This document shows, piece by piece, positions 1 through 15,425 of a DNA stretch of 64,000 bases. Positions within the stretch are counted from its first letter, which is position 1. Every line of letters begins with the position of its first letter. The notes beneath the pieces are model-generated. The model worked only from the letters and a program-made list of their open reading frames with translations, was not told the origin of the DNA and did no database searches. The translations under genes and the position numbers were made by a program. This DNA is from a virus (taxonomy: Duplodnaviria; Caudoviricetes): the IMG/VR virus record IMGVR_UViG_3300031953_000001. One strand, 5' to 3'.

Positions 1-770
1 GTATCGCGCCGGTGGATCAGTTTGATGATCTGTGCGGGGATGTCCCATTCCCACCAGCGTTCTTGGGTGGTCCACCGCGAAGGATGGGCGTGGTGGTTGT
101 TGTGCCAGCCCTCACCCATGGTGACCAAGTTGGCGATCCAGCTGTTGCGACTGGTGTCACCCTTAAGGTCGTGGTTACGATAACCGTGCAGGTGAGGGAT
201 AACGATGATGCCGCAGGCGCTGTGCAACGACAAGATTGCGGGTACGGCGTAGACAAAGACCACGCCTTGCCACCCCAGCGTTATGTACAGCAGCAAACAC
301 CAAAGGATCAGGATCTCAAAGTAGTTGGCGTGCATCCATCGGTGCAACGGGTCTTTACGAAGCCCTTTGGAGACTCGACCCGCTTGGGTAAACCCCGAGG
401 TGTTCCAGACCCCGAACCAAGCTCTGAATACCCCGATGTTTTGTGGGCTGTGTGGGTCGTGCTCTTGATCGGTGTGTATATGGTGGATGCGGTGTACGAT
501 GGTCCAAGCCAAAGGGCTACCCACCGTGGTTAAAACCCCACAAAACAGTAAGAACGCTTCTATGGGCTTGTACGTCTTAAACGCACCATGAGCCGCCATG
601 CGATGAAAGCCGACGTTGATGCCCAAGATGCCAATGAACCAGTAGGTTAACCACGACACCATAAGCCAGCCCCACCAGCCTTGTACGACCGCCCAGATCA
701 CCAAGGGTAAGGCGATGATGTGGGTGGCGATTTGCAGTAAGCGTACGCCTTGGTTGTGTGTAAGTTTCAT
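1..770 (-). CDS. membrane acyl-CoA/acyl-lipid (delta-9-like) fatty acid desaturase, 3' end beyond window edge
   Basis: Not in the ORF track because it has no stop inside the window. Hand translation from ATG 770 gives MKLTHNQGVRLLQIATHII...FHRMAAH...VHRIHH...GEGWHNNHHAHP...WWEWD, with all three His boxes and hydrophobic segments. Confidence 0.93.
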   Translation of the reverse strand, partial: MKLTHNQGVRLLQIATHIIALPLVIWAVVQGWWGWLMVSWLTYWFIGILGINVGFHRMAAHGAFKTYKPIEAFLLFCGVLTTVGSPLAWTIVHRIHHIHTDQEHDPHSPQNIGVFRAWFGVWNTSGFTQAGRVSKGLRKDPLHRWMHANYFEILILWCLLLYITLGWQGVVFVYAVPAILSLHSACGIIVIPHLHGYRNHDLKGDTSRNSWIANLVTMGEGWHNNHHAHPSRWTTQERWWEWDIPAQIIKLIHRRD

Positions 771-773
771 GCC

Positions 774-1532
774 TTATCCTCGTTTTTTAATGAGCCAAAT
801 GAACATCGCTGGGGGATCGATCTCCCACCAACGGACTTGAAAGTTGTATCGCCCAGGGTGCGCGTGGTGGTTGTTGTGCCAGCCGTCGCCCATGGTCAAA
901 AAATGACACAGCCAACTGTTCTTGCTGTTGTCCTTGATGTCGAAGTTACGGTATCCCCACTGATGCGCTAAGATGGCCAAGGCGTAACTGACAAAGAAGG
1001 TTGACAAAGCCGCGGGGATCAGATAGACCGCGATCACAATCTCAACCCCCCAAACCAACCACAGCGCCGCAACGATTGCCAGGTGCAGATGAAAATAATA
1101 GCGGTGTATCCACATGAACGATGGGGTATCGAGGATGTCTCGCATCGCCACTCGCCGGTCCTCGGTTTCAACGTAGTGCAAACACCATAAGGATTTCCAA
1201 TACCCCATGTGCCTATGACAATGGGGGTCTTTGGGTGTTTCGGTGTATCGGTGATGTACCCGATGTATCCACGCCCAACTGTGGGGAGTGCCTACCGTAC
1301 AAGGCACACTCAGAAGACCCAAGGCCCACTCTATCGGCCCGTACGTCTTAAAGGATCGATGCGATACGTACCGATGTAAATACGCGTTGAACCCGATGCC
1401 CTGAATGACGCCGTAAGCCAGCACACTGACCCACAACAACCCAGGGTCGGTCATCGCCAGATACACCACCCCAGGAATAAAACAAGCAAACAACATTAAC
1501 CGCCACCAGTTTAACCGTTGGGTGGTAAACAT
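774..1532 (-). CDS. membrane fatty acid desaturase (delta-9-like), tandem paralog
   Basis: His boxes LHRYVSH, IHRVHH, WHNNHH. Start moved to ATG 1532, which has an AGGAG SD; the ORF track starts at 1565. Confidence 0.93.
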   Translation of the reverse strand: MFTTQRLNWWRLMLFACFIPGVVYLAMTDPGLLWVSVLAYGVIQGIGFNAYLHRYVSHRSFKTYGPIEWALGLLSVPCTVGTPHSWAWIHRVHHRYTETPKDPHCHRHMGYWKSLWCLHYVETEDRRVAMRDILDTPSFMWIHRYYFHLHLAIVAALWLVWGVEIVIAVYLIPAALSTFFVSYALAILAHQWGYRNFDIKDNSKNSWLCHFLTMGDGWHNNHHAHPGRYNFQVRWWEIDPPAMFIWLIKKRG

Positions 1533-1542
1533 AACACGTCTC

Positions 1543-2748
1543 CTAATGATGTTTCTGCAAAGCAAGGACTGAGTTTAGACCCCCAAACCCAAACGCAGTC
1601 TTAACCACCACGTTTATATCCACGTTGTCTTGACGTTGAGCCAATTGAATGGGGGCCAAGTCGGGATCGAGTGTACTCACTGGGTTGCCCACCAAAAACC
1701 GATGGTTCATCATCAGCACACTGTACCATATCTCAAGACTGCCTGAGGCGGTAACGCTGTGGCCGGTTAACCGTTTAAACGCAGTGACCGGAACGCTATC
1801 GCCATAGACGTCGTAAATCGCTTGAGCTTCGGCCACGTCGCCGTTGGGGGTTGACGTTGCATGGGCTGAGATGACGTCGGGGTATATCCCCTGAAGGTCC
1901 AGTTGCGCTTGCACTGAGGCCATGCAGCGCCGGGCTCCTTCCCCGGTGGGGTTGGTCAAGTCGCCGCCGTCGGAGTAATCCGCGTAAGCCACGCAGCGGG
2001 CGTAAGCGAACGTTCCTTGACGAGCAACCCAATGTTCATAAGACTCTACGATCAAACAGCCACCGCCTTCAGAAATGGTAAACCCCGCTCGATCTTTAGA
2101 GAAGGGTGCCGACGCATGAGTGGGATTATTGCCTCGGTACAACGCCCGCATGGCGTCAAAGCCGGCCAAGGTCTCCCCCAGAATCTTCTCAGCGCTCACA
2201 CAGACCACCACATCGGCTTTGCCCAACTCGATCAAGTCCATGGCCTGGGTAACCGTACGGACCCCAGAGGCGCAGGCGTGTTGAACCGTGTGCACAGGTC
2301 CTCGAATATTGAACAAGGCCGTTAGAGGTCCTGTGACAGCCGTGGGGATAGACTTAAGCAGCGCAAACGGGGAGGTGCGCTTTTCTCGATACCCCAACAG
2401 CGAATGCAATCCGTCGATTCCTGTGGCCCCCATCGCTGAGACCAACGCGGTGCGCTCACTGGCGAAGACCTCAAGACCCAACCCGGCGTCCGCCAAGGCC
2501 CGTAGAATAGACACGTAGCTGATGGCCAGAGTGTCGTTGTACACGCTCTTAGGTAAGTCGCGGGCAGGACTGTCCTCTTTAAGGTTGAACACGCAAGGGC
2601 TCCAAAAACTGGCTTTGAGGTTCTTGCTGAGTATCGCCATGGGACTGATGTTGGACGTCTCTGCTTTGAGGTTATCCACCAGTTCTTGCTGTGTCTGCCC
2701 CATGGGGGTGATTCCACCGGCGCCGGTGATGAGGGTATGAACGGACAT
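1543..2748 (-). CDS. fabF: beta-ketoacyl-ACP synthase (FabF/FabB family)
   Basis: Cys-His-His triad motifs QHACASG, SAHATST, KRLTGHS; PFSKDRAGF and C-terminal AFGFGGLN; 401 aa. Confidence 0.93.
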   Translation of the reverse strand: MSVHTLITGAGGITPMGQTQQELVDNLKAETSNISPMAILSKNLKASFWSPCVFNLKEDSPARDLPKSVYNDTLAISYVSILRALADAGLGLEVFASERTALVSAMGATGIDGLHSLLGYREKRTSPFALLKSIPTAVTGPLTALFNIRGPVHTVQHACASGVRTVTQAMDLIELGKADVVVCVSAEKILGETLAGFDAMRALYRGNNPTHASAPFSKDRAGFTISEGGGCLIVESYEHWVARQGTFAYARCVAYADYSDGGDLTNPTGEGARRCMASVQAQLDLQGIYPDVISAHATSTPNGDVAEAQAIYDVYGDSVPVTAFKRLTGHSVTASGSLEIWYSVLMMNHRFLVGNPVSTLDPDLAPIQLAQRQDNVDINVVVKTAFGFGGLNSVLALQKHH

Positions 2749-2756
2749 GGCGTGGT

Positions 2757-3311
2757 TTACTCTTTTAGATAGACATCAATGGGGATGGCCAATCGTAACC
2801 CTTTGGCGTGTTCTTGCACGTAATGCTGCAAGTACGATGGGAAGATCAGCAACCCCCCCGTTTGGGGTTGGTGTTTGTACGGTTGAAAGTGGTTGTTGAT
2901 CACATCCCAAGGGTAACCGCGCGAAGCCAGACCGCGTGGGTCGCACACGGTTAAGTACCCCTCGCACGCTTCTAGATAATAAATGGCTGACACATGCGCC
3001 CCGGTGTGGTGGTGCAAGGGCGTACCGTGACCATCACTGCTGTTGCGCACCCACGCCTGCCAACTGTCGATCAGAGGCTCGTACGCAAACTGTTCGCACG
3101 CGTATTGCATGATCAACGGGATCAGCTGATCTTCCACAAACGCTTTGAGTCGTGGGTACTCTGGTAGATGGAGGTTTTTGGTCTCATCGATGGGGCGATC
3201 GTCGTAGGATCGACCAGGCATCAAGGCTTCTTCCACCAAGGCGTCCAGATTGGGGGCTGGAACCGTTTCTTCACGCAGTACAATCTTCCACGGTTGAATG
3301 TCGGTGGCCAT
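2757..3311 (-). CDS. putative 2OG-Fe(II) oxygenase (TIGR02466/PF13759-like)
   Basis: HHHTGAHVSAIYYL, DPRG, LLIFPSYLQHYV, distal R-x-A-I motif. Confidence 0.8.
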   Translation of the reverse strand: MATDIQPWKIVLREETVPAPNLDALVEEALMPGRSYDDRPIDETKNLHLPEYPRLKAFVEDQLIPLIMQYACEQFAYEPLIDSWQAWVRNSSDGHGTPLHHHTGAHVSAIYYLEACEGYLTVCDPRGLASRGYPWDVINNHFQPYKHQPQTGGLLIFPSYLQHYVQEHAKGLRLAIPIDVYLKE

Positions 3312-3321
3312 AGTTGAGTCC

Positions 3322-3885
3322 TTACTGGGGTTCTTTTAAATACAGATCGGTGGGCAGAGATACCCGCAACCCCTGACCGTGACCGTCAACGTAATGCTGC
3401 AAGTACGATGGGAAGATCAGCAAGAGTCCCGCTTGGGGGTTCTCACTGAACAGGTTAAAATGGCGGTTCCTCACGTCAGTAGGATAACCGCGACACGCCG
3501 ATCCCCTAGGGTCAACTAAGTTGATGCTGCCCTCACTGGCGCAGGGGTAATAGATGGATGACAAGAGTGCCCCACTGTGCTCGTGCAGCTTCATGCCTTC
3601 GCCCCCTACTGTCACGCGCAACCAGGCGGTGTAACTGTCCACAAACTGCCGTACCCCGAACTGCTGAGTCAGGTAGTCTTGCAAACGAGGCACTATCTCA
3701 TCGTACACCAAGCGATGGGCTTGAGGGAAATCGCGTTCTGACACCGTGTTGTCATCCAACTCCAACCCATCGAAGTTGCGATTGGTGGACCGCATCAAGG
3801 CTTCTGTGATCAACGCCTCGTTGTCCACTCCTTCAAGAATCTCCCGTCGTACCACACAGCGCCAGGGTTCTAGGTCTTGAAACAT
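3322..3885 (-). CDS. putative 2OG-Fe(II) oxygenase, tandem paralog
   Basis: LHEHSGALLSSIYYP, DPRG, LLIFPSYLQHYV. Start moved to ATG 3885 (GGAGG SD). Confidence 0.8.
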   Translation of the reverse strand: MFQDLEPWRCVVRREILEGVDNEALITEALMRSTNRNFDGLELDDNTVSERDFPQAHRLVYDEIVPRLQDYLTQQFGVRQFVDSYTAWLRVTVGGEGMKLHEHSGALLSSIYYPCASEGSINLVDPRGSACRGYPTDVRNRHFNLFSENPQAGLLLIFPSYLQHYVDGHGQGLRVSLPTDLYLKEPQ

Positions 3886-4292
3886 GCAGCCTCCGCTAGA
3901 CACTCGTCTTTAAAGTAACGCACCGTAAAATCCACCCAGAGCCCGGTTAAAGGAATGTGGTCTATCCCCCCCAGCCCTTCAAGGATTTTGTCGTAGTCCG
4001 TTTTGTTCTCACTGTAAGGCACAAAGTACGGGTCGTTGCCAAACAACAAGTCAGGGTCATCCAATACCTCGTAGAAGTCTTCGTCAAAGTGATCGCGCAA
4101 CAGTCTGGCATAGATAACCGCAATGGCGTACGATTTCCCTGGATAAACAGACGCGGCTATAGGAGCACGAAAGTACCGTAAAGCCTCACCCACAACGTCA
4201 GGATCGGAGATGGTGGTGAAGTTGCGGGTATCGTCGCTGTGCTCTTCCGTCAGTCGGTGGTACAGAAGTTGATTGACTTTCCATTCTTTCAT
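3870..4292 (-). CDS. hypothetical protein in radical SAM cluster (YPGKSY motif)
   Basis: ATG 4292 overlaps the upstream stop (ATGA); acidic DDPDLLFGNDPYF segment. Confidence 0.7.
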   Translation of the reverse strand: MKEWKVNQLLYHRLTEEHSDDTRNFTTISDPDVVGEALRYFRAPIAASVYPGKSYAIAVIYARLLRDHFDEDFYEVLDDPDLLFGNDPYFVPYSENKTDYDKILEGLGGIDHIPLTGLWVDFTVRYFKDECLAEAACFKT

Positions 4293-5377
4293 GCGATTCG
4301 CCTTTCCCAGTTGAATTCGTCTCGCATCGCTTGGGCGGTGGAGATGCAACGGTCAGCATTGGTGATGGCCATGACTTTCTGTACCCCTCGCTCGGCACAC
4401 TTAGCCACAAACTCACAGCCGCCGCAGATGCCGTTGGATTGGGCTAAACTCAAACACTCGAACATCCCCGCCTCTTCTTGCGCAAAGATGCTCTCAAAGG
4501 TCCAGGGACCGTCAACGCGATGCTCGGGTTCAAAGGACGAGAAGGCCTCCACAATGAACGGCGGCACGAACAACTCGCCGTTGCGATAGACCACGTCCCA
4601 GTCCTCGCCCTCACTCAATTGCAACTCGACGATGTCGAAATGTTCCCCACGCTCGGTTGCAGCCAAACGCGCGTCGATCAGCAGTCGGTTTAGATGGTGA
4701 AGACTGGTCAAGAACCGAGTCTGGTTCTCGGGGTCTCTCAAACTGTCTCGACCGTGGGGAAGAATGAAGTCGTTGTGTGACGTTGGGTGCAGTTCGGTGT
4801 GGTACATCCGGGTCAACAGGTCTTTGGTCAAGGTGAATTTACGCTTGACGTCGTTGGCGATCGATTCTTCAAAATTGATCACGGTGTAGACTCGGGTGAT
4901 GGTCACGGTCTTAAGGCAACTCTCAAAGTAAGCCACCTTCTGACGAATGCCATCCACGTACGCTGGGTTGTCCAAATGCCGCACTTCAAACGGCACCGTG
5001 AACTTCAACAGCCCGTTAGGGATCAGCGCTTCGACTTGTTCGGCTAAGCGCTCGTAGATCCGCGGGTTGGGGTCTATGAACGCACAGTTTAAGGTGGTCT
5101 TTAAGAACCGTTTGGCTATAGCTTTGATGCGGGGGTGTTCCAAGATCGCGTCTTTGTTCTCAGAGCTCAAAATGTCGGTGGGGCCTAGGATGAAATTGAG
5201 CATCTCCAACTCGGCCGTTTCAAACGACGTCAACATCCGGTCGATGCGATCGAACTCCTCCTCGGTTGGAAGTCGGTTGTTGTCTTTCTCCACCATACAC
5301 CCAGAACAGTGGTGACGGCACCCAGAGGCGATCTCCATGGTGAAGTCGATCAATTTGTTAACTTGAGATACGTGCAT
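4289..5377 (-). CDS. divergent radical SAM protein with C-terminal Cx2Cx5C
   Basis: CRHHCSGC (CxxxCxxC); GPTD where GGEP is usual; C-terminal CGGCEFVAKC. Confidence 0.75.
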   Translation of the reverse strand: MHVSQVNKLIDFTMEIASGCRHHCSGCMVEKDNNRLPTEEEFDRIDRMLTSFETAELEMLNFILGPTDILSSENKDAILEHPRIKAIAKRFLKTTLNCAFIDPNPRIYERLAEQVEALIPNGLLKFTVPFEVRHLDNPAYVDGIRQKVAYFESCLKTVTITRVYTVINFEESIANDVKRKFTLTKDLLTRMYHTELHPTSHNDFILPHGRDSLRDPENQTRFLTSLHHLNRLLIDARLAATERGEHFDIVELQLSEGEDWDVVYRNGELFVPPFIVEAFSSFEPEHRVDGPWTFESIFAQEEAGMFECLSLAQSNGICGGCEFVAKCAERGVQKVMAITNADRCISTAQAMRDEFNWERRIA

Positions 5378-5381
5378 GTTC

Positions 5382-6437
5382 TCACCAATCGCATTTGTGG
5401 GGAAGATGTCCCAAAATAGAAAGACACTGGTCGGTCTCTAACAGCCGTTGCAGTCGATGCACCCCACGCGTCGCGCATTTGCTAACAAAGTGACACCCAG
5501 AACATGAGGTGAGGGTGGTGGCGTGTTCAACCGATTTAAAGTAGGTCTGTTGATCCGACCGTTGAATGGAATCCAGCGTCCACGGTTTATCGAATTTAAA
5601 GTCGGGGTGGAACACGGCGATGGGGCTGTTGATCAACGGAGCAATGTACAACTCACCGTCGCGGTACGATAAATGGTAATCTGAGCCGACGTGCGAATCC
5701 AAGTCGTCAATTTTAAACTCATACCCTTTATCGAGTTGATTGGCAAACACCGCGTTTTGCTTGAGAATGGTTCTGACGAATTCTTCCCGATTGCTCTTAA
5801 CGGTTAAGTCACGACGCCCATTGTGCAAGACGAAGGTGGTGGTGTCCGATCGTTTAAACAGCTGGATGTGGCGGGTTTCGTACAACACCTCTTCGGTGAT
5901 CAAGCCACTGTCAAGCATTGTCTCGGTCAGGTTCACTATAGTGGTCACACTGGCCAGACGAATGCTGGTTAAGTGCTGCTCAAACCAGGCAATACGCCCC
6001 CGCAGTTTCTCGATGTAGCCCAGGTTTCGATGGTGCTTCAATTCGAAAGGCACTAAGAACTCAACATCAAGGCCCGGCATGAACGCTTCCAGCTCTTTAG
6101 CAAACTGGACGTAGGCATCGGGATTGGGGTTCAAAAATGAGCAGTTGAACACCACCGATTTAAACCCCTTAACCATGTCTTTGATGGCTGGGTGGGTGAA
6201 TACGTCACGTCGGTTGCTGGCCGCCATGACATCCGTCGGGGCAAACTCCATCCACGACATCTCCCAGCCTCGTTGACGTACCTCTTCCACCACCTGAGTT
6301 AAGGCGTAAAGATCGTCTTCCGTGTACGGTGTAACGTCTTGGGTGTTGACACTGCAACCCGAACAGCTGTAGTCGCAGTCTTTCAACAACTCCAACGCAA
6401 GATTGCCAATGTTGTCTTCTCGGATCAGGAGGGTCAT
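5382..6437 (-). CDS. divergent radical SAM protein, paralog of 4289-5377
   Basis: CDYSCSGC; APTD; C-terminal CSGCHFVSKC. Start moved to ATG 6437 (ATGA overlap). Confidence 0.75.
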   Translation of the reverse strand: MTLLIREDNIGNLALELLKDCDYSCSGCSVNTQDVTPYTEDDLYALTQVVEEVRQRGWEMSWMEFAPTDVMAASNRRDVFTHPAIKDMVKGFKSVVFNCSFLNPNPDAYVQFAKELEAFMPGLDVEFLVPFELKHHRNLGYIEKLRGRIAWFEQHLTSIRLASVTTIVNLTETMLDSGLITEEVLYETRHIQLFKRSDTTTFVLHNGRRDLTVKSNREEFVRTILKQNAVFANQLDKGYEFKIDDLDSHVGSDYHLSYRDGELYIAPLINSPIAVFHPDFKFDKPWTLDSIQRSDQQTYFKSVEHATTLTSCSGCHFVSKCATRGVHRLQRLLETDQCLSILGHLPHKCDW

Positions 6438-7393
6438 TGTTGCTCTGCCCATTGGATCAGGTGAATAAACCCGTTGCACGAGTACTCCGTGCTTTGGACG
6501 TCTCTTAAATGTTCCGACAGACAACGCCCTAAGTAGCGACACCCACTGCACCCAGAGTTTTGTACGCGCTCTTTCTCGGTCACGCACCATGCGAAATACT
6601 CATCGATGGAGTCTAACTCTAAGAAGAACTCGTTGTCTTGGGCGTCAAACTCCAACACCCCAAATTTCCCAGTGGGTGTCACATAGACGTGGTCGTCTGA
6701 AAAAGCGTTGCCCCGTCCGGCGATCACTTCATCCAACTGCTGTGCATTGACAAAGTCGAACTTCATCTCGTCACGGCGGGCGTGCAGTACTTTGATGAAC
6801 GCCTCGTACTCCGGATAACTGACCGGCAGTTGGTTGGCTTGATTGGGGCTGTAAGGCTTGATCTCCACCGAACTGAGGTTGGCCAGCAAGTTCAAGGTGC
6901 CAATGATCTCATCCGGGTTCTTTGCCAAAAGCGCGGGTGAGGCCAACATCAAGATGCAGAACTCCCGTTCCATCTTCAGCATTTGCTGAAAGACAAGGTC
7001 GCTTTTCTCTCGGGCGTCGAAATCGTAGCTGACCGACAGGTACCAATCGGGATCGTGCACCACCGGGTTGTTCATCGACAGGTTGGTGATGATGTTCAGA
7101 TCGTCAATGCCGCGAAGATGCAGTCCGGCTTTGAGTTCCGTCAAGTACTCCACAGGCAGCAGCAGAGGCTCGCCGCCGTACAGATCCACCATCCCGACCT
7201 CAGCCACGGCTAAGACCTCATCCACCCGCTCAAAGAGCCGTGAGAGCTTAAGACGTTGCTTGTCTCCAAGTTGCTCATCCGTCAAGTAACAAAACGAGCA
7301 ACGAAAGTTGCAATAGTAGCTAGGATTCAGGCTGAGGTTCAGAGTCGGCTTAACCGACGGCGATGATGTTGCTGGGTACATCGATGGCCTCAT
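6434..7393 (-). CDS. radical SAM protein with SPASM/twitch-like tail (start uncertain)
   Basis: CNFRCSFC, LYGGEP, C-terminal CSGCRYLGRCLSEH...C. Confidence 0.88.
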   Translation of the reverse strand: MRPSMYPATSSPSVKPTLNLSLNPSYYCNFRCSFCYLTDEQLGDKQRLKLSRLFERVDEVLAVAEVGMVDLYGGEPLLLPVEYLTELKAGLHLRGIDDLNIITNLSMNNPVVHDPDWYLSVSYDFDAREKSDLVFQQMLKMEREFCILMLASPALLAKNPDEIIGTLNLLANLSSVEIKPYSPNQANQLPVSYPEYEAFIKVLHARRDEMKFDFVNAQQLDEVIAGRGNAFSDDHVYVTPTGKFGVLEFDAQDNEFFLELDSIDEYFAWCVTEKERVQNSGCSGCRYLGRCLSEHLRDVQSTEYSCNGFIHLIQWAEQQ

Positions 7394-8450
7394 TGACGTA
7401 GTCGGTAGGGATCAGTTGTCCGGTTAACCCATTGGCGTCGATGATCTGAGGGGCCAGAGCTTTCATCTTCACGCAGTGTTCTTCCACCCGCCCGGTTTTC
7501 TTTGCGTCGCGGATGCTTTTCTTGCACCCGTTGCAGATTGAAAACATAGGACAGAAGTAACAACTCTGTTTCAGGCTGGCCAACTCAACCACCTGCAAGG
7601 GCCGTTGTTTTGCCCCCGCCATCTCAACTTCAAAGTCAATGGGGTATTCTCCATCGTCACCAAAGGAGCCGCAGGAGTAATAACCGCCGTTGGGTTGCAT
7701 GTTGCGAATGCCCGAGTCACAATCCCGAGCCAAAGGACAGGTGGTTGCTCCCCCGGCTAAGACGGTCATCATCTGTTGAGTGCTGTGTTCCCACTGAGCC
7801 AGCCCTGCGGCGTAGATCTCAAGGTACACCTCGTACATGTCGGCCACCACAAAGTGCTGACCTTCGTTGCCCATGGTGCCTTTTCGAGTCTGGATCACCG
7901 GTCCTGAGGCGTTGGCGTAGTTCAGTTTGCACACCACGCCCATGGCCTTGGCCAACTCCACCGTTTTTACCGCTGTGTCGCGGTTGCTTTCGTCGATGAC
8001 CGCAATGAACCCAGGACGATAACCCACGTGTTCCAGCATGGCGTCTGAGACGCCCCAGAACTCCTCTTCGGTGAAAGGGGTATAATCACCCTTTAAACGT
8101 TTGTCACCGTACTGGAAACTGGTGTGGACCCCAATGCGAGGATGATTGAACAGCTCAGACCACATCGAGGGTTTCTTGTAGAAAGGCCAGAGGTTAGTGG
8201 TCAAAGATAAGACCGTCTCCTCCATCTCCAACTCGTCCAAGACCGCAATTATGTCCCAGTAATACTGCACTGGCATCATCAGAGGATCACCGCCGTTGAC
8301 GATGATGGTCTGGGTTTCTGGGTAACGCACTAAGAACCGCCGGATGTCCGCCACAGACACTATGTCGTCTTTGTCGTCAGCGATGTTGGTGCTGGAGCAA
8401 AAGGTGCATTTAAAATTGCATTTCTCAGTCGGTTTTATGATCAAGTCGAT
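7350..8450 (-). CDS. radical SAM/SPASM protein (start ATC 8450 or TTG 8444)
   Basis: CNFKCTFC, NGGDP, CPLARDC...YYSC, CYFCPMFSICNGC...C. Confidence 0.9.
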   Translation of the reverse strand: MDLIIKPTEKCNFKCTFCSSTNIADDKDDIVSVADIRRFLVRYPETQTIIVNGGDPLMMPVQYYWDIIAVLDELEMEETVLSLTTNLWPFYKKPSMWSELFNHPRIGVHTSFQYGDKRLKGDYTPFTEEEFWGVSDAMLEHVGYRPGFIAVIDESNRDTAVKTVELAKAMGVVCKLNYANASGPVIQTRKGTMGNEGQHFVVADMYEVYLEIYAAGLAQWEHSTQQMMTVLAGGATTCPLARDCDSGIRNMQPNGGYYSCGSFGDDGEYPIDFEVEMAGAKQRPLQVVELASLKQSCYFCPMFSICNGCKKSIRDAKKTGRVEEHCVKMKALAPQIIDANGLTGQLIPTDYVNEAIDVPSNIIAVG

Positions 8451-8481: not shown

Positions 8482-9540
8482 TCATACCGCTACAATTGGA
8501 ATCAGACCCAAGGCAGTGTTGTGCAAGACGTCGATGTATCGGTGGGTGGCTTTATACACACACTCGTCCATCTCGTCGCGAAAGCGGTAATTGTGTTGCA
8601 TGAAACAGCCCAACTCACACCGATGAAAATACTCACAGGTGGTGCAGCCGTACTTCTCCATGAACGCTTCTTCTATACCGCTGTTGTCTTTGGCTTCAAT
8701 GGGGGTGGTGTAAATATCTTTGGCCACCTCCGGGTCGATCAGATTCCCGCAGCCGCAAATCGTGCCATCTTCCAACACCAACTTACTGGACCGACACGAC
8801 AGACTCGACGACTGACGTTTCAACCAACCGGCGATCGGCTCACACCGAGGGTAGCGATCGATCAGAAACTTGAACATACGAAACAGGTCGGTGTCGCTGG
8901 GGGCGGCGTCGGTGCGCTCATCCGGCATCAGGTAATCAAAGTACATCTTGAACCCGGCCTGATACGCCCACTGAAAGAACTCGTCGGTGTCTTTTACAAA
9001 GTGGTCGATGTTTTGTTTGGTCATCAACAAACTGATGCTGGTCACTGTCTCAGGGCCGTAGTATTCCAGGTTGGCACGGAACTGTTTGAACTGCTTCCGA
9101 TTGAACCGTCCTTTAGGATCGTAAGAGACGGTCACGGTGGTCTTGACGTCCACCGTTTGTACTCGCTCCAAAAAAGACGTCAGCTGAGTGGTGTCCGGAG
9201 TCACCAGGTTGGTGACCCAGTTCAAGGTTACCTCTAGGTTCAGCTCGCGACACATCTCAGCGATCGCTTGACTGAAGTAGAGGTACGTGTCCGCCAGAAG
9301 TGGGGTAAAGATCTCAGGAGCAAAGACCTCACCGCCCATGATGTTAAACACCACCTGCGATTTGGTCTCTTGTTCCAACAGCGACCGAACAATAGGGAGC
9401 TTGTCCAGTACGTCATCTACCCCCACCAGTGAATCGTGATCCTGCCAACAGAAACTGCACGACAGATTGCAATAGGTAAACAGGTGCAACGTGTACTCCT
9501 GTTCCTTATCGCGTTTGTTCTGTAAAAAGAGGTCGGTCAT
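8482..9540 (-). CDS. radical SAM/SPASM protein
   Basis: CNLSCSFC, MGGE, CTTCEYFHRCELGC (Cx2Cx5Cx3C). Confidence 0.9.
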   Translation of the reverse strand: MTDLFLQNKRDKEQEYTLHLFTYCNLSCSFCWQDHDSLVGVDDVLDKLPIVRSLLEQETKSQVVFNIMGGEVFAPEIFTPLLADTYLYFSQAIAEMCRELNLEVTLNWVTNLVTPDTTQLTSFLERVQTVDVKTTVTVSYDPKGRFNRKQFKQFRANLEYYGPETVTSISLLMTKQNIDHFVKDTDEFFQWAYQAGFKMYFDYLMPDERTDAAPSDTDLFRMFKFLIDRYPRCEPIAGWLKRQSSSLSCRSSKLVLEDGTICGCGNLIDPEVAKDIYTTPIEAKDNSGIEEAFMEKYGCTTCEYFHRCELGCFMQHNYRFRDEMDECVYKATHRYIDVLHNTALGLIPIVAV

Positions 9541-10550
9541 AGTTCAAAGCCTTTGCACGCCTCCGGACTCAGACTCACGGCCCAATGGATTAAGTGCACG
9601 TTGAGTTTGTCCAGATCCGCCCAGTCCAGGTAATCGGTGTGCTCGTTGCTGGCACGGAGCATGTCGATGAACAGATCGGTGACTTGGTTGTTGCCCATGG
9701 GTACGCTGGTGTTAACGATCTTCAACTTAGCCCGCTCGGCGCTGACTTGAGTTTTCTCAATCGCCTCCGACTGCTCCAGATACAACGCGTAGTCACTCAC
9801 CACCGCCTCGATGGCCGCTGGCTTAAGTCGAGTAATGCCGGCTCTCAACTTAGGGTTGTTGATCATGGTGAGCCTAGGAATCTTCGACAACAAATCAACT
9901 TCTCCTAAGTGGTCTTTTGCCGTGTACCCGTATTTCTCTTGCATGTAATCTGAGAAGAACAGAAGCGTCAGATTGCGTTGAGTCTCATCGAGGGTGTTGA
10001 GTACGCCGCGCAGGGCAAACACTCGGATCGACTCGGCGATGCTGGCGCGTTTGTTCCCAGATAGATGATCCAGTAACTTATACTCCAACGACACCCGCTG
10101 AGTCAGGTCTTGGGTCAATGTTCTTAACTTGTCTTCCCTTGGGGTACGACTCAAGTTCTCGATCCACGTCTTTAAAGTCGTCGGGTCAGGCAAGCCGACG
10201 CCTTGAGCGTGCAGGGTCAGCATCTCCAAGTTAAGGAGTGTCTTTATCTGATCGTCCTGAGCGTTAGGGAAGATGGCTTTCAACCACATAGCCACCAAGG
10301 CCCCATACGTCTCCAAACTGACATAGATCACCAGCTTAGCATCGCCGGCTTCTACAAACTTGGCCAGCAGCTCGACAAACCCCTCGTCGATAAAGGCCGC
10401 CTCATCCTGAGTCTTACCCACCATCACAGGACCCACGCCCAAACGTTCGTCGTAGTTCTCAGCCAGCTGAGCCGACGCCAGATAGAAGGTGTGCTTATCC
10501 GACTTGAGTGAATCTACTTCGAGGTAAACCCGACTGAATAAATGATACAT
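9537..10550 (-). CDS. hypothetical protein in radical SAM cluster
   Basis: 337-aa ORF coupled on both sides (TAATG and ATGA overlaps). Confidence 0.75.
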   Translation of the reverse strand: MYHLFSRVYLEVDSLKSDKHTFYLASAQLAENYDERLGVGPVMVGKTQDEAAFIDEGFVELLAKFVEAGDAKLVIYVSLETYGALVAMWLKAIFPNAQDDQIKTLLNLEMLTLHAQGVGLPDPTTLKTWIENLSRTPREDKLRTLTQDLTQRVSLEYKLLDHLSGNKRASIAESIRVFALRGVLNTLDETQRNLTLLFFSDYMQEKYGYTAKDHLGEVDLLSKIPRLTMINNPKLRAGITRLKPAAIEAVVSDYALYLEQSEAIEKTQVSAERAKLKIVNTSVPMGNNQVTDLFIDMLRASNEHTDYLDWADLDKLNVHLIHWAVSLSPEACKGFEL

Positions 10551-11275
10551 TACGCGTCCTCGATGGCTTCGTGGTTGTGCTTTAAGGTAGACATCAGTCC
10601 GTCAAACTCGGTGTCTGTGACCACCTCGGCGTCGCTGAAGGTCAACGACATCAGGTACACGTCGTTCTCCGGGATTGCCCAGAAGTGAAACAGGTTCTTA
10701 CTTTTGAACATGTAGTCGTTGAAATACTTGGTGTAGTTCTTCACCAACCCCTCGTTAACTGCCCCTAAGGCAATTGGAAACAACGGGTTATCAAACAAAT
10801 GAACAAAGTTAATGCCTTTGGTATCCGACGTGTCGTCTGTGGGATAAACGTCCACCACGCTTTGGAGCTTCTCGTCCTGAAACGTGGTCATCACGTACAG
10901 ACTCATCGAGTCAATCAACGACAGCCACTTGCCCAAGATCTCAAGGTGCTCTTTGATCCACTGATCGGTGACCCAGCTGCACTCGGCAAGTCCTTTGATG
11001 TGCAAGACGACTTCCAACACCAAGGTTTCCAGTTGAGGGCACTTTAACAAGGTCGGCAGATTGAGGTACGCGTCCACCACCTCCAGGACGTCTTCACCCA
11101 AGAACGTAACGTCCACCGGCAACTCCAAGTTGCTCAGATAGATCAACGCTTGTAAGGGCGCTACTTTATCTTTGGAGGCACTCAGGTCCACGTCCAGGAT
11201 CACGTCAGGGTCGCCGATCACGGCTCTGAGGGTGGTTACGGGTATGGGTACGTTGGTTTTAATGACGGTACTCAT
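10550..11275 (-). CDS. hypothetical protein in radical SAM cluster
   Basis: Start moved to ATG 11275 (TGATG overlap with the upstream stop). Confidence 0.75.
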   Translation of the reverse strand: MSTVIKTNVPIPVTTLRAVIGDPDVILDVDLSASKDKVAPLQALIYLSNLELPVDVTFLGEDVLEVVDAYLNLPTLLKCPQLETLVLEVVLHIKGLAECSWVTDQWIKEHLEILGKWLSLIDSMSLYVMTTFQDEKLQSVVDVYPTDDTSDTKGINFVHLFDNPLFPIALGAVNEGLVKNYTKYFNDYMFKSKNLFHFWAIPENDVYLMSLTFSDAEVVTDTEFDGLMSTLKHNHEAIEDA

Positions 11276-11829
11276 CAACGGCGTCCTCGGGAGTTGTGGC
11301 AGTTGCTGTGACATTGCGTATGACACACTTGTCGTGAGAAAGTTCTAAGCGTATTAACTCGGGCGCTCTGAGCGTAGAGGTTGCGCACCCGTTCAATGTA
11401 GTCGTATGTTTGAGACTGATCCACCGGCAATCCGTTGACCAACCCACCGGCGGCAGGACTCGCCAGAGGCACGTAATCGCCCGCCGGTAAATGCGCAATG
11501 GCGATCGCGTTGTAGATCACCGTGGCGGTGTTGTTGGAGTACCCGGACTTACTGCGGGTGATGTAGATTTGGGTACGACGAATCCGTGAGTACACGTTAA
11601 CGTAACTCATAAAGACATCACGTAAGGTTTTGGCGGTTAACTCGTCTGAGGGCACTTGCAGTTGCGCCAACGAGGGCACGCCTAGATCGCCTGAGGTGGT
11701 GCCACCGAACCAACTCACCAGCGAGTTAGCTGGATAGATGTTGGTACCCCAAGAGATACCCGATCGGGTGTATCCAACCACCCGTCCTACGAACTGATTG
11801 TACACGTCTAATGATTTAACGTCAGCCAT
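11275..11829 (-). CDS. protein with C-terminal (CHxx)3-RGRR motif; candidate modification substrate
   Basis: Ends VCHTQCHSNCHNSRGRR; the only three Cys in the protein are in this tail. Confidence 0.8.
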   Translation of the reverse strand: MADVKSLDVYNQFVGRVVGYTRSGISWGTNIYPANSLVSWFGGTTSGDLGVPSLAQLQVPSDELTAKTLRDVFMSYVNVYSRIRRTQIYITRSKSGYSNNTATVIYNAIAIAHLPAGDYVPLASPAAGGLVNGLPVDQSQTYDYIERVRNLYAQSARVNTLRTFSRQVCHTQCHSNCHNSRGRR

Positions 11830-11873
11830 GATCGCTTCCTATTGATTAAATTCCCATACGATCTGACGACCGC

Positions 11874-12923
11874 TTATCCGACGTTGAGTGCCGGAATTAG
11901 TTCAGGCGCGCCGTATTTAAAGTGCGAGAGCAACAACATCAACCCCGGACACGAATCGCCCTGCCACACCAAGCGGTGACAATCGCCTCCACACACGTCC
12001 AACAGATGGCAACTCACGCAGTTGGGGTTGAGGTCCAACTCGGTGGTGATGCGCTCCATCCGTCCTTCACTGACCAGAAACTCATCAATGGGGTCGTTCA
12101 AGGTACCGTTGGATTCTGCCTTAGCCCCGTTGGCACAACCGCCGATGTTGCCAGCTCCATCAATAGTGAACAGATTCTGTTCACAGTCACGACAGTTGGT
12201 GTCTACTTTGAACTGATTGGTTTCAAACTTGGTTTCAATGGCGTCCAAGGTGTTGATGTGGTAGTTGGGCTTTAGTCGCTTGTACGCAAAGTACAGGTCG
12301 TAGTAAAACCGATCCACCGCTCGATTGTCTGGAAACATGTGGGGGTTGTCCACCGCGTTGCCATCGGACGTCAAGCGCTCCACCGCAATCTCCGTTACCC
12401 CAAATTCTCCCCACAAGTGAATCAACTCGTCGATGTCGTACGTCAGTAACTGATCGGTCACCGTGACGAACATCTTGATGGTGATGCCTTGAGCTCGCAG
12501 CATGGTCAAGTTGTTGCGCCACTGCGTGTACATGCGTTCGGTCTTAAACCGATAAACCGGGTCCCAACTGGTGCCCACGTGACTGCTCATCATCGTCTTA
12601 AAGAATTCGACGTGGCGATCGGTTAGCTTGTAGATCAGATTGGTGGTGGCGCCAATGGAGATATCTTCCCAACGTTCGACACTGACCCGCGACCGCACCG
12701 CGTTAGCAAACTGCCAGTGCTCGTCAATCGGGCGTAAGAAAGGCTCACCCCCGTGCAATTCTAGATGTAGATGTTCCTCGGGAAATCGCTGACCTAATTC
12801 ACTGGCCCACTGTGCTACTTTATCGATGTCCCAGACGGTTTTAGCGCCCTTAGACCCGGAGGTGAAACAGTGATCGCAATCGAGGTTGCAGGTGTCCGTG
12901 GGTTTTATGTAAACAACTTTCAT
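11874..12923 (-). CDS. radical SAM/SPASM protein
   Basis: CNLDCDHC, HGGEP, CRDC...GGC, CVSCHLLDVCGGDC...C. Start ATG 12923 (ATGA overlap). Confidence 0.92.
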   Translation of the reverse strand: MKVVYIKPTDTCNLDCDHCFTSGSKGAKTVWDIDKVAQWASELGQRFPEEHLHLELHGGEPFLRPIDEHWQFANAVRSRVSVERWEDISIGATTNLIYKLTDRHVEFFKTMMSSHVGTSWDPVYRFKTERMYTQWRNNLTMLRAQGITIKMFVTVTDQLLTYDIDELIHLWGEFGVTEIAVERLTSDGNAVDNPHMFPDNRAVDRFYYDLYFAYKRLKPNYHINTLDAIETKFETNQFKVDTNCRDCEQNLFTIDGAGNIGGCANGAKAESNGTLNDPIDEFLVSEGRMERITTELDLNPNCVSCHLLDVCGGDCHRLVWQGDSCPGLMLLLSHFKYGAPELIPALNVG

Positions 12924-13402
12924 AACTTCCACCGGTCTTCAATAAAACGTTCATTGCCAAAACTGATCATGATCGACTCCTCGTGATTCAACGCGCGGTG
13001 AGGCACACCGGCGAGAACCCAGACACCGGGGTTGTCTGCGTTTAACGTTACCAGCTCCCCTGCAATCTCAAGGGTCTTAGTGCCCCAGATCCACTTTAAG
13101 TAAATGTCATAGGGGTCTTGATGAAGAGGGAAACTGGGAGCCCCGGCACAGGCCCAAAACAAATGAGCGTTGCAAGGTCCCTCGTGTCCGCTTTCTTCTT
13201 TGATACGACACGTTTCTAAGTAGACCTCTTTAAAGACTTTCTCCAACTCTTCTACCTTTACAGTTTTTAAACTGTCGTCAAACACCTCGGCTGCCGATTG
13301 AGCTGGGCGTATCTGTTGGTCAGCATCAATGCGCGAGACCATACCTTCTTCGTACAAATCGGGTAGGGTGAGCAGCAGCTCAAGTCGGTCTTTAAAGTCC
13401 AT
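12920..13402 (-). CDS. JmjC/cupin-like Fe(II)/2OG hydroxylase
   Basis: SFPLHQDPYD (HxD), GTK, distal PHRA His. Start ATG 13402 with GAGGAG SD. Confidence 0.75.
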   Translation of the reverse strand: MDFKDRLELLLTLPDLYEEGMVSRIDADQQIRPAQSAAEVFDDSLKTVKVEELEKVFKEVYLETCRIKEESGHEGPCNAHLFWACAGAPSFPLHQDPYDIYLKWIWGTKTLEIAGELVTLNADNPGVWVLAGVPHRALNHEESIMISFGNERFIEDRWKL

Positions 13403-13463
13403 CGCGTGTCTCCTCGTTAATCTCATAAGGTGTATGATTAACGTACGGCTTTATATAAAAGGG

Positions 13464-13489
13464 AAAAAAGAGAGGACCGAAGTCCTCTC
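13464..13489 (-). terminator. intrinsic terminator between tail genes and the enzyme cluster
   Basis: GAGAGGAC-TTCG-GTCCTCTC followed by T6 on the minus strand. Confidence 0.85.
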
Positions 13490-13503: not shown

Positions 13504-14961
13504 TTACTGCCACTGAGGCGGCCAAACCTGACGCCAAGTACCGGCCACATACGCTTGCAACGTGCCCGCGGATTCACGCAGCGACAAAGACTCATTGACG
13601 TTCTTCTGAACGTATCTCGCTAGAGTGCCTGTGAGGGTCTCTGTTACATAACTACTGACCAACGCAGGGGTCATGTACCGGTCAGACGCCGTACCCGTAA
13701 GCGCTTCCAGAGAACTGGCTACAGGGAAATTGCTAACCGACCCCAAACCCACTTGCGCCTTAGTGACTTGGTGGGGGTTGCTGGTGTTGCTCACGTGAGC
13801 AGTCAACGGCAGTCCAGCCTGGAACGCAATGGCTTCTTTTACGCGCTGCGGTGTCATGTACCGATCGTTGCGAGTACCTTCCTGAGCATCCAACAAAGAC
13901 CCCAGAGGGTGATTCGCCACCGAACCCAAGCCCACTTGGGTCTTGGTCACCAGATGCGGGTTGTCTTTATTGGCGTCGTGTGCCGCCACCGCGTCTCCAG
14001 CCAACTGATCAATCGCCGCCACCAAACTCGGAGGCGTGATGTACCGATCGGAACGTACCCCTTCAATTGCCTCAGCCGGGGTGGCGTCCAAGTTGTTACT
14101 GAGGTTTCCTAAGCCCACTTGAGCTTTGGTCACCAAATGCGGGTTGTCTGACCGAGCTGTGTGTGCACTCAGATCCACCCCAACCTGACTGGCGATGGCT
14201 TGACGTACCCGATTGGGCGTCATGAACCGAGAGTTGTTCAGACCCTCTTCCGCTTCGAGTTGGGTGGCGTCTCGGTAGTTGGACACCTGAGACAAACCCA
14301 CTTGAGTTTGAGTGACCTGATGTGGGTTGTCGGTGCGGTCGGAGTGAGACTCCAATTGGGTGCGCACTTCTTCAGCCCGGGTCAACGCTAACTGGTATCG
14401 GTCTTCGATCTGTATCCGTATCTCATCGTGCGAGGCCACATCGCCGTACAGAATCGCTTGACGGATCTGATCCAGCTGCTGCACCACGTACTCAAAACCG
14501 TAAATGTCGCCTAAGTCGTGCAGGTGAGGTGAGGGTGGAAACGCGTCTGGCCGTCCCAGCAAATCGCCCCATATGACTTCACGGTCATCGAGGTTCAGGT
14601 TATCAATCAGATCGATAATGACCTGAGTGATGTTGGCGTAGTCGCCTCCCACCACCTGATAGTCAAGAGTGACCTCATCGGATACCGATCCGTCGGTGAC
14701 GATCACCGCCGTGCAAATTTCCTTACCCGAGCGCTCGCTGGGTTCGGCGTAGTACATGATCGGAATGTACTGATCGTTCGGAACCAGCAACGCACCACTG
14801 ATGCCGTCGCGGACCACCAAGGACTCGGTGTAAAAGGCACCGTATCTGGGTACCGCCGCGCGGTTGAGGCCTGGGTGCAACGTGTGCGGTTCCCCAAGAA
14901 GCAAGTTCTCAGGCGAGGTACCCGTTAAGTCTAATGGGTACTTGTTGACGATATCATTCAT
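13504..14961 (-). CDS. virion structural/tail-fibre-type protein with four NPHxVT-QVGL repeats
   Basis: Four ~61-aa repeats NPHxVTKxQVGLGxVxN...xMTP; N-terminus paralogous to 18718-21399. Confidence 0.75.
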   Translation of the reverse strand: MNDIVNKYPLDLTGTSPENLLLGEPHTLHPGLNRAAVPRYGAFYTESLVVRDGISGALLVPNDQYIPIMYYAEPSERSGKEICTAVIVTDGSVSDEVTLDYQVVGGDYANITQVIIDLIDNLNLDDREVIWGDLLGRPDAFPPSPHLHDLGDIYGFEYVVQQLDQIRQAILYGDVASHDEIRIQIEDRYQLALTRAEEVRTQLESHSDRTDNPHQVTQTQVGLSQVSNYRDATQLEAEEGLNNSRFMTPNRVRQAIASQVGVDLSAHTARSDNPHLVTKAQVGLGNLSNNLDATPAEAIEGVRSDRYITPPSLVAAIDQLAGDAVAAHDANKDNPHLVTKTQVGLGSVANHPLGSLLDAQEGTRNDRYMTPQRVKEAIAFQAGLPLTAHVSNTSNPHQVTKAQVGLGSVSNFPVASSLEALTGTASDRYMTPALVSSYVTETLTGTLARYVQKNVNESLSLRESAGTLQAYVAGTWRQVWPPQWQ

Positions 14962-14987: not shown

Positions 14988-15425
14988 TCAAGAAGCATTG
15001 GGGTTAAGTACATCGGCGTCTCCCGAATAATCGGCCAAGTACCTTTGCATACGAGCGCTGTATTCAATGCTGCGGCGTTTATTAAAGCGCCGCCACCCGA
15101 AAGCTCGCACCGCCAAATACATTCCTTTAGCGTACCTATAAGGCACGCCTTCTTCCAACATACACTTATAAAACAGCGCATCCGCGACTCGACGGTCCAT
15201 CTCAGTGACGGAGTACAAAAAGTCGTGGAGCAAGGCGGACCAGCGGGCCCACCCTTTAATCAATGCAAAGAGACCTGGGATGTGTGGCACGGTGTCCAGG
15301 TCGCTTACAAACCCTCTCGGGATCACATACCCACAACACGTCCAGTCCTCATTAACCACCCAGTAGTGGCGCTGAGGCAGAGGACTCATTGACGGTAATT
15401 GTAAGTAGTTTTTGACTTCGGACAT
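14988..15425 (-). CDS. DUF1353 family protein
   Basis: IPRGFVSDLDTVP, ALLHDFLY, ADALF, MYLAVRAFGW. Confidence 0.75.
   Translation of the reverse strand: MSEVKNYLQLPSMSPLPQRHYWVVNEDWTCCGYVIPRGFVSDLDTVPHIPGLFALIKGWARWSALLHDFLYSVTEMDRRVADALFYKCMLEEGVPYRYAKGMYLAVRAFGWRRFNKRRSIEYSARMQRYLADYSGDADVLNPNAS

Follow-up and report, generated by a model that had tools for sequence, protein, structure and literature searches.

The subject of this analysis is a gene, here called T, that lies within a cluster of radical S-adenosylmethionine (rSAM) genes in a 64,000-nucleotide stretch of viral DNA (Duplodnaviria; Caudoviricetes; IMG/VR record IMGVR_UViG_3300031953_000001), referred to throughout as the window. 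T is located on the minus strand at 11275..11829 and encodes a 184-residue protein that is predicted to consist of a folded alpha/beta body (residues 1-169) and a flexible C-terminal tail. The open reading frame (ORF) runs from an ATG at 11829 to a TGA stop codon at 11277-11275, is preceded by a Shine-Dalgarno sequence (AGGAAG) 7 nt 5' of the ATG, and overlaps with its stop the start codon of the following gene, A (TGATG). The sequence-only reading that had singled out this gene also pointed to an upstream TATG at 11855-11858; the motif is present (11858-11855), but a 4-mer carries no statistical weight. The C-terminal end of the protein is VCHTQCHSNCHNSRGRR, the corresponding stretch of the translation reads ...SRQVCHTQCHSNCHNSRGRR, and the C-terminal tryptic peptide is QVCHTQCHSNCHNSR. 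The core tail, C169-R184 (11278..11325, minus strand), has the form CHTQ-CHSN-CHNS-RGRR and holds the only invariant residues of the family. C169, C173 and C177 are the sole cysteines of T and each is followed by a histidine (H170, H174 and H178), the third repeat being HNS and the protein terminating in RGRR; translation thus confirms the earlier description of a Cys-His repeat of four-residue period, containing all three cysteines, at the extreme C-terminus. Across the six frames of the window this tail is the sole occurrence of CHxxCH. The protein itself has no match in Pfam, PHROG or NCBIfam (E<=0.1), or in PADLOC.

T belongs to a module of minus-strand genes that starts directly after a strong terminator (13470..13489, minus strand; an 8-bp stem, UUCG loop and T6 run), which separates it from a tail-fibre-like gene. 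The first module gene, Cu (12920..13426), encodes a cupin/JmjC-like Fe(II)/2-oxoglutarate (2OG) oxygenase with an invariant H102-x-D104...H143 set and K117, whose homologues match PF07883 and JmjC_2. It is followed by R1 (11874..12932), an rSAM/SPASM enzyme (PF04055, TIGR04085, phrog_1802) that contains CxxxCxxC (C15/C19/C22) and GGE motifs and the SPASM cysteines C250-x10-G-x4-C266, C305x2C308x5C314x3C318 and C328, all of which are invariant in 67 sequences; the SPASM domain (TIGR04085) is matched at 28.9 bits (cut-off 27). Downstream of T lie two genes that are not rSAM genes, A and B, and then R2 (8482..9540), an rSAM/SPASM enzyme with a conserved CxxxCxxC motif and seven C-terminal cysteines. 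The earlier placement of T between SPASM genes consequently holds in a looser sense, as R1 is immediately upstream whereas the next rSAM gene downstream is reached only beyond A and B. The A product (10550..11275; 241 residues; phrog_20767) is modelled by AlphaFold2 with a predicted local distance difference test (pLDDT) score of 88 and resembles no known fold, the best Z of 5.3 being confined to a generic beta-alpha-beta subdomain of 60 residues, and its alignment contains no conserved set of Cys, His or Asp. The B product (9537..10550; 337 residues) evolves fast, with Y9, D78 and E156 as its only conserved residues, and has no family match and no sequence match in the structural database (PDB). 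Neither protein exhibits conserved residues of catalytic appearance.

The remainder of the module comprises R3 (7350..8444), the most conserved enzyme of the set, with SPASM-type cysteines, which is also kept in the minimal form of the module described below; R4 (6434..7393), an rSAM enzyme with one C-terminal cysteine cluster; R5 and R6 (4289..6590), two divergent rSAM paralogues (CxxxCSGC, a short Cx2Cx5C C-terminal cluster, phrog_31457) found in a phiKZ-like subgroup of loci only; p (3870..4349), a conserved 159-residue protein with many invariant Tyr, Asp and Lys; and two 2OG-Fe(II) oxygenases (2757..3903; PF13759), genes for which are present in nearly all loci. Judged by their retained catalytic motifs, the module enzymes look intact. 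A scan of the window and of the called genes of related loci found no protease, transporter or immunity gene in the module, and PADLOC returned weak, generic viperin-type rSAM matches only.

Conservation and linkage of the T family

A word-indexed search retrieved eight relatives of T. An exhaustive phmmer search of 1.84 billion representatives identified at least 164 clusters (50% identity) with homologues at E<=0.001, and 188 relatives were found in IMG/VR. Among 185,579 prokaryote genomes, one per species, there were three hits, all on contigs of metagenome-assembled genomes that bear the same phage module. The isolated phages with a T homologue are Pseudomonas phage pPa_SNUABM_DT01, Agrobacterium phage Atu_ph07, the Ralstonia phages RSL2, RsoM3USA and the FLC4 series, and the Burkholderia phages FLC6, FLC8 and SURPRISE13. 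No clear homologue was found in RP12/RP31, in which the rSAM arrangement differs. Searches of GenBank phages with the 10-kb module by megablast, and by tblastn with a distant family member (P0060), gave no match, and in the literature no paper was found that describes T or its motif. T is one member of a large, phage-only and previously undescribed family.

In an alignment of 99 sequences, with a mean column identity of 23%, the only invariant columns are C169, H170, C173, H174, C177, H178, R181, R183 and R184, and a CHxxCHxxCHxxRxRR terminus is shared by 200 of the 224 distinct homologues. These two observations show that the motif did not arise by chance. The fourth repeat position is serine in the first repeat (93%), Ser or Asn in the second (97%) and Ser, Ala or Asn in the third, which gives a consensus of [VI]-CHxS-CHx[SN]-CHx[SAN]-RGRR-stop, in which a cysteine stands before each of three His-Xaa-Ser units. 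No further cysteine occurs in 131 of the 200 homologues with this canonical tail.

ORFs were called in 88 related loci and assigned to classes by jackhmmer searches seeded with the window genes, linkage being counted in the 58 non-redundant loci in which the tail is canonical and the flank long enough. Every one of these contains Cu, R1, A and R2; R3 and R4 are present in 57, B in 56 and p in 54, and R1 is immediately 5' of T wherever flank exists. The order is nearly fixed (Cu-R1-T-A-B-R2-R3-R4, in some loci R5/R6, followed by p, with 2OG oxygenases scattered between them), and its core from Cu to R4 is kept in phiKZ-like phages, in the Rak2-related Atu_ph07 and in uncultured phages. The sequence-only reading had proposed that homologues commonly lacking rSAM neighbours would tell against a substrate role; with R1 and R2 accompanying T in 58/58 canonical loci, the opposite was found. 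In the phiKZ-like Ralstonia and Burkholderia phages RSL2 and SURPRISE13 (L089/L090), two genes labelled 'dihydrofolate reductase' lie between the rSAM genes of the module; their position makes them probable counterparts of the small conserved module proteins Ox and p, and the label may be wrong.

A minority of homologues (L067, L094 and L039) carry four CH repeats followed by GDGPGxGGGV in place of RxRR, and their module contains an oxygenase, R1, T, A, B, R3 and an oxygenase, without Cu, R2 and R4. As this Gly-rich, four-repeat tail occurs with only R1 and R3, the enzyme set appears to be tied to the tail type. PAAR, muramidase and baseplate-like genes lie near the minimal module of L094. Three further loci (L084, L086 and L087, about 9007-9933) contain two tandem T paralogues, the first of 308 residues, Gly/Ser-rich at its C-terminus and devoid of a CH tail, and after it a shorter T-family ORF.

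AlphaFold2, supplied with the family alignment, predicts T with a mean pLDDT of 92 and a predicted template modelling (TM) score of 0.85. Since the body exceeds 90 and the tail reaches 56, the tail is best viewed as an accessible peptide on a folded carrier. Comparison of the model with the PDB gave no Foldseek match at E<=0.001 and a best Z of 4.5 in a wide VIA search, whilst fold searches of AFDB and BFVD returned family members only; likewise, no PDB sequence was matched at E<0.05 by a profile of T, A or B. From the model, the body would be an independently folded, variable domain with a novel fold. In BFVD, the T body fold recurs in three proteins of 504-660 residues from 'Myoviridae sp. 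ctijX18' (probability 1.0, TM 0.54-0.58), which indicates that this domain also occurs within larger phage proteins. A prediction of the R1-T complex, using both alignments, scored 0.02, a value that counts neither for nor against binding.

Virion association and fibre-gene surroundings

The virion proteins of Atu_ph07 have been listed by electrospray ionization tandem mass spectrometry (PMC6102473). The published gp numbers can be anchored to accessions through gp180, the 13,350-nt structural coding sequence (AUZ94962), and the masses computed for AUZ94952 (31.89 kDa), AUZ94958 (66.07 kDa) and AUZ94959 (21.66 kDa) agree with those listed for gp170, gp176 and gp177; this anchor and the matching masses identify gp170 as the T homologue. 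In purified virions gp170 was represented by eight unique peptides (35% coverage) in bands 1-9 (PMC6102473), so that for this homologue the virion association which the sequence-only reading proposed to look for is already documented. The products of gp171 (R1), gp172 (Cu), gp169 (A) and gp168 are absent from the same table.

The gel migration of gp170 is unusual for its mass. This 31.9-kDa protein had its maximum in the uppermost band (band 1), in which most other proteins that peak are of 75-140 kDa, whereas several other proteins of 31-35 kDa (gp32, gp59, gp65 and gp324) peak in band 7 and a few more peak lower, in bands 11-13 (PMC6102473). Only one other protein below 40 kDa with at least two peptides peaks in band 1. 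As described, the loading buffer lists no reducing agent (PMC6102473), and the high-mass form may consequently be linked by disulfides or otherwise covalently; the only cysteines of the Atu_ph07 homologue are the three in its tail.

The gene preceding the terminator (13504..14961, minus strand) encodes a tail-fibre or virion structural protein with NPHxVTKxQVGLG repeats and matches to phrog_2163 and tail families. It is one of several tail-fibre-like genes between 13504 and 21399, whose products (485, 384 and 893 residues) contain many copies of the repeat NPHxVTKxQVGLGxVxN; the C-terminal region of the longest is also weakly Sortilin/BNR-like. Between two of the fibre genes lies one for a DUF1353 protein (14988-15425; PF07087, E 1e-15). 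A fibre of this repeat-bearing type lies directly 5' of the module in 28 loci, and in the other loci sampled the upstream ORF was a fibre with a phrog_22593/19602 C-terminal domain (9/9). The C-termini of the upstream fibres fall into two or more unrelated types that have no Cys/His motif in common, which weakens the idea that the module acts on a conserved domain of the upstream fibre. Independent work on pelagimyophages assigned 'radical SAM cassettes' to the host-recognition cluster (PMC7029224). At the other end of the module, beyond the oxygenases, the minus-strand gene string continues through window positions 1-2748 with a ketosynthase of the FabF/FabB type (1543-2748), after which come two membrane fatty-acid desaturases, at 774-1565 and 3-770; the ketosynthase is also found downstream of the module in close relatives (L003-L005), and is missing there from most other loci.

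Comparison with known rSAM substrates and metal-binding tips

The two features expected of an rSAM-matured peptide, namely an adjacent rSAM enzyme with CxxxCxxC and SPASM auxiliary-cluster cysteines and a conserved core motif co-inherited with that enzyme, are both found at this locus. The best NCBIfam matches of R1 are DynA, AmcB, PapB, anSME, HxsB, YhhB and FxsB, at about 40-48 bits against cut-offs of 340-450; on sequence grounds, the named families closest to it all consist of SPASM enzymes that modify peptides or proteins.

By analogy, the closest counterpart of T, and the best precedent for it, would be HxsA of the HXS antiphage system, a 214-residue protein with five basic HxS repeats that is matured by the rSAM enzymes HxsB and HxsC together with HxsD, a +8 Da change having been mapped to SHRSS (Li et al., Nat Commun 2026, PMC13128918). 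As proposed for T (184 residues), HxsA is a folded, protein-sized substrate that is retained. His-Xaa-Ser units are repeated in tandem in a basic context in both proteins, and each system has more than one dedicated rSAM enzyme and small non-enzymatic partners. Despite this, there is no detectable sequence homology: T is not in the HxsA family (TIGR03979), R1 scores 39.5 bits against the HxsB (TIGR03978) cut-off of 370, and R3 scores 24.1 against 267.9 for HxsC (TIGR03977). The T repeat also differs in its period of four, in the invariant cysteine before each histidine, in its position at the extreme C-terminus and in its RxRR end, and T has neither a signal peptide nor a peptidoglycan-binding domain. 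Furthermore, its module is phage-encoded, with four to six rSAM genes and Fe/2OG oxygenases, and T is virion-associated whereas HxsA is a periplasmic effector of host defence.

A second comparison is with the triceptides, in which cyclophanes link His-C2 to the C-beta of the third residue, as made by the SPASM rSAM enzymes HaaB on HAA, YhhB on HNR and HtkB on HTK (PMC11499958). The three H-x-[S/N/A] units of T fit the His-containing omega1-X2-X3 motif, and the triceptide synthases AmcB, YhhB, FxsB and GrrM are among the weak best matches of R1. However, the scores (AmcB 44.7, cut-off 425; YhhB 39.0, cut-off 445; FxsB 37.6, cut-off 370) place R1 outside the characterised cyclophane synthase families XyeB, GrrM, FxsB, YhhB and AmcB, and the triceptide substrates are short leader-core peptides, with no invariant cysteine before the unit, rather than folded virion proteins. 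Cysteine thioethers are the other classic outcome of SPASM chemistry, and in QhpC a protein subunit is cross-linked by a SPASM rSAM enzyme and retained. Like T, sactipeptides and ranthipeptides present short Cys repeats beside SPASM maturases, but the module enzymes fall outside the sacti- and ranthipeptide maturase families (PapB 42.7, cut-off 340; StsB 25.5, cut-off 625) and the match of R2 to QhpD is weak (20, cut-off 453). In contrast to these substrates and to QhpC, the T tail has no conserved Asp/Glu acceptors, and its His and Ser are as invariant as its Cys. As membership of each family failed on these scores, the resemblance of T to the HXS, triceptide and ranthipeptide systems is taken to be functional rather than homologous.

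Metal-binding tips of phage fibres and spikes provide a comparison of another kind. Metals are classically ligated by cysteine and histidine, and the latter holds the metal in known fibre tips, as at the HxH-Fe sites of the T4 gp37 tip. T shares with these tips a host-recognition location in the virion and a periodic, His-rich motif, but it lacks HxH, contains cysteine, has a tail predicted to be flexible rather than a beta-helical needle, and is always linked to rSAM genes.

A proposed maturation of the virion tail and its significance

The explanation that we favour, and regard as probable, makes T a virion protein from the host-recognition cluster, with an exposed (Cys-His-Xaa-Ser)x3-Arg-Xaa-Arg-Arg tail that is matured by the co-encoded rSAM enzymes and oxygenases and retained whole. 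On this proposal the tail would be the dedicated substrate of R1 and R3, as a core pair, with R2 and R4 in an accessory role, and of the Fe(II)/2OG oxygenases, among them the JmjC-like cupin. After translation, and before T is built into the virion or while this takes place, these enzymes would leave the tail cross-linked, oxidised or both. The likeliest chemistry would join His-C2 to Ser-C-beta in a three-residue cyclophane at each of the three H-x-S units, form Cys thioethers, or do both, with the cupin hydroxylating the Arg-rich end; the matured tail may then serve as an attachment stable to sodium dodecyl sulfate or as a conserved ligand-binding tip on the fibre. T would accordingly be a protein-sized substrate that resembles those of RiPP systems (for peptides made on the ribosome and modified after translation) but is kept whole, in place of a leader-core precursor that is cleaved. 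The proposal is supported by the concentration of selection on the tail, by the lack of any other cysteine in most canonical homologues, by the linkage and by the stop/start overlap of T and A. Further support comes from the flexible tail on a confidently folded body, from the invariant SPASM cysteines of R1 and the kind of enzyme to which it is closest, from the tie between tail type and enzyme set, from the finding of gp170 in virions, and from the HxsA precedent. Linkage and the virion homologue likewise favour the suggestion, made in the sequence-only reading, that T is a candidate substrate of the rSAM array. Of the two forms in which that suggestion was cast, a structural body or a long leader, the former is preferred on account of the confident fold, the lack of a protease or exporter in the module and the recovery of body peptides from virions.

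Several considerations weigh against this explanation. The covalent modification of the tail, together with its chemistry, is something that we infer, and the chemistry cannot be assigned by homology because no curated family cut-off is even approached by the scores of these rSAM enzymes. These enzymes could act instead on A, B or the neighbouring fibre. Given the properties of Cys and His as ligands, an unmodified metal-binding tail would be conserved too. A correspondence between the numbers of CH repeats and of rSAM genes is ruled out by a T variant with two repeats that keeps about four rSAM genes, so no simple one-enzyme-per-repeat rule applies. Finally, if the high-mass form of gp170 proved to be a disulfide through free tail thiols, this would argue against thioethers.

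The metal-ligand argument finds its full expression in a scenario, which we consider rather unlikely, whereby (CHxS)3 is a plain metal-binding tip that coordinates Zn, Fe or Cu, perhaps between the subunits of an oligomer, whilst the enzymes have another target (for example the fibre, A or B, or a small molecule). It would account readily for the invariant Cys/His pairs, for the presence of T in virions and the adjoining fibre genes, and for a high-mass species seen with no listed reductant, which suggests free, disulfide-capable thiols; it is also in keeping with the His-metal sites of known fibre tips. It leaves unexplained, however, the near-invariant Ser/Asn at the fourth repeat position, which fits the acceptor of an omega-X-X cyclophane and for which a pure Cys/His metal site has no need, as well as the invariant RxRR, the 58/58 linkage with R1 directly upstream, and the way in which the enzyme set changes with the tail. 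In addition, we know of no metal motif that matches the i, i+4, i+8 spacing of the cysteines. That T, A and B always occur together between R1 and R2, that the module always follows a fibre gene, and that the small, non-enzymatic HxsD of the HXS system binds HxsC would all suit a different role for T, as an accessory carrier or scaffold (comparable to HxsD or to a RiPP recognition protein) or an Fe-S/sulfur donor through its Cys/His tail, that presents the fibre, A or B to the rSAM enzymes. Such a role is improbable, as the T homologue is found in Atu_ph07 virions whereas the enzymes and A are not, the upstream fibres offer no common Cys/His motif, and the T tail shows the strongest conservation of the module outside the enzymes.

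Very improbable, in our view, is a classical RiPP pathway in which the 168-residue body is a cleaved leader and a modified 16-residue peptide is released as an antibiotic, metallophore or signal. The C-terminal position of the core, and the resemblance of the enzymes to RiPP maturases, would be as expected, and proteusins have long leaders. Against this, the leader protease or exporter typical of such clusters is missing, as is an immunity gene, from every module; the body is a well-folded, conserved domain, peptides of which make up the 35% coverage of the homologue in virions; and the family is confined to phages and located in their host-recognition clusters. Within the favoured explanation of a matured and retained tail, a more specific, and quite unlikely, variant is that the rSAM enzymes make intermolecular covalent links from Cys or His to carbon through (CHxS)3 and so rivet T to itself or to the fibre, giving rise to the high-mass, SDS-stable species of Atu_ph07 virions.

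Clusters of four to eight rSAM genes have been noted, and more than once described as unusual, without explanation in genome papers (PMC12390700, PMC8066314, PMC11898562, PMC8541153, PMC7029224) on phages 332-Vera (where they were called 'highly unusual'), FLC6, S13, DT01 and RP12/RP31 and on the pelagimyophages. Maturation of peptides by rSAM enzymes belongs to the biosynthesis of bacterial natural products and, since 2026, to one antiphage effector, HxsA; for phage virion proteins it is undescribed. One possibility, again quite unlikely, is that the basic, HxS-type tail of T is the phage-side counterpart of the DNA-entry barrier formed by the bacterial HXS system. With a defined candidate substrate, an invariant 16-residue peptide on a soluble 20-kDa carrier, these unexplained clusters become directly testable. 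New ways of cross-linking Cys/His could come to light through T, as could a new principle by which phage host-recognition structures are built or stabilised. Should the links prove to be intermolecular, this would be the first virion organelle cross-linked by rSAM enzymes, and the host-recognition machinery of phiKZ-like phages, Rak2-like phages and marine myophages would contain a new class of enzymatic protein-protein cross-link.

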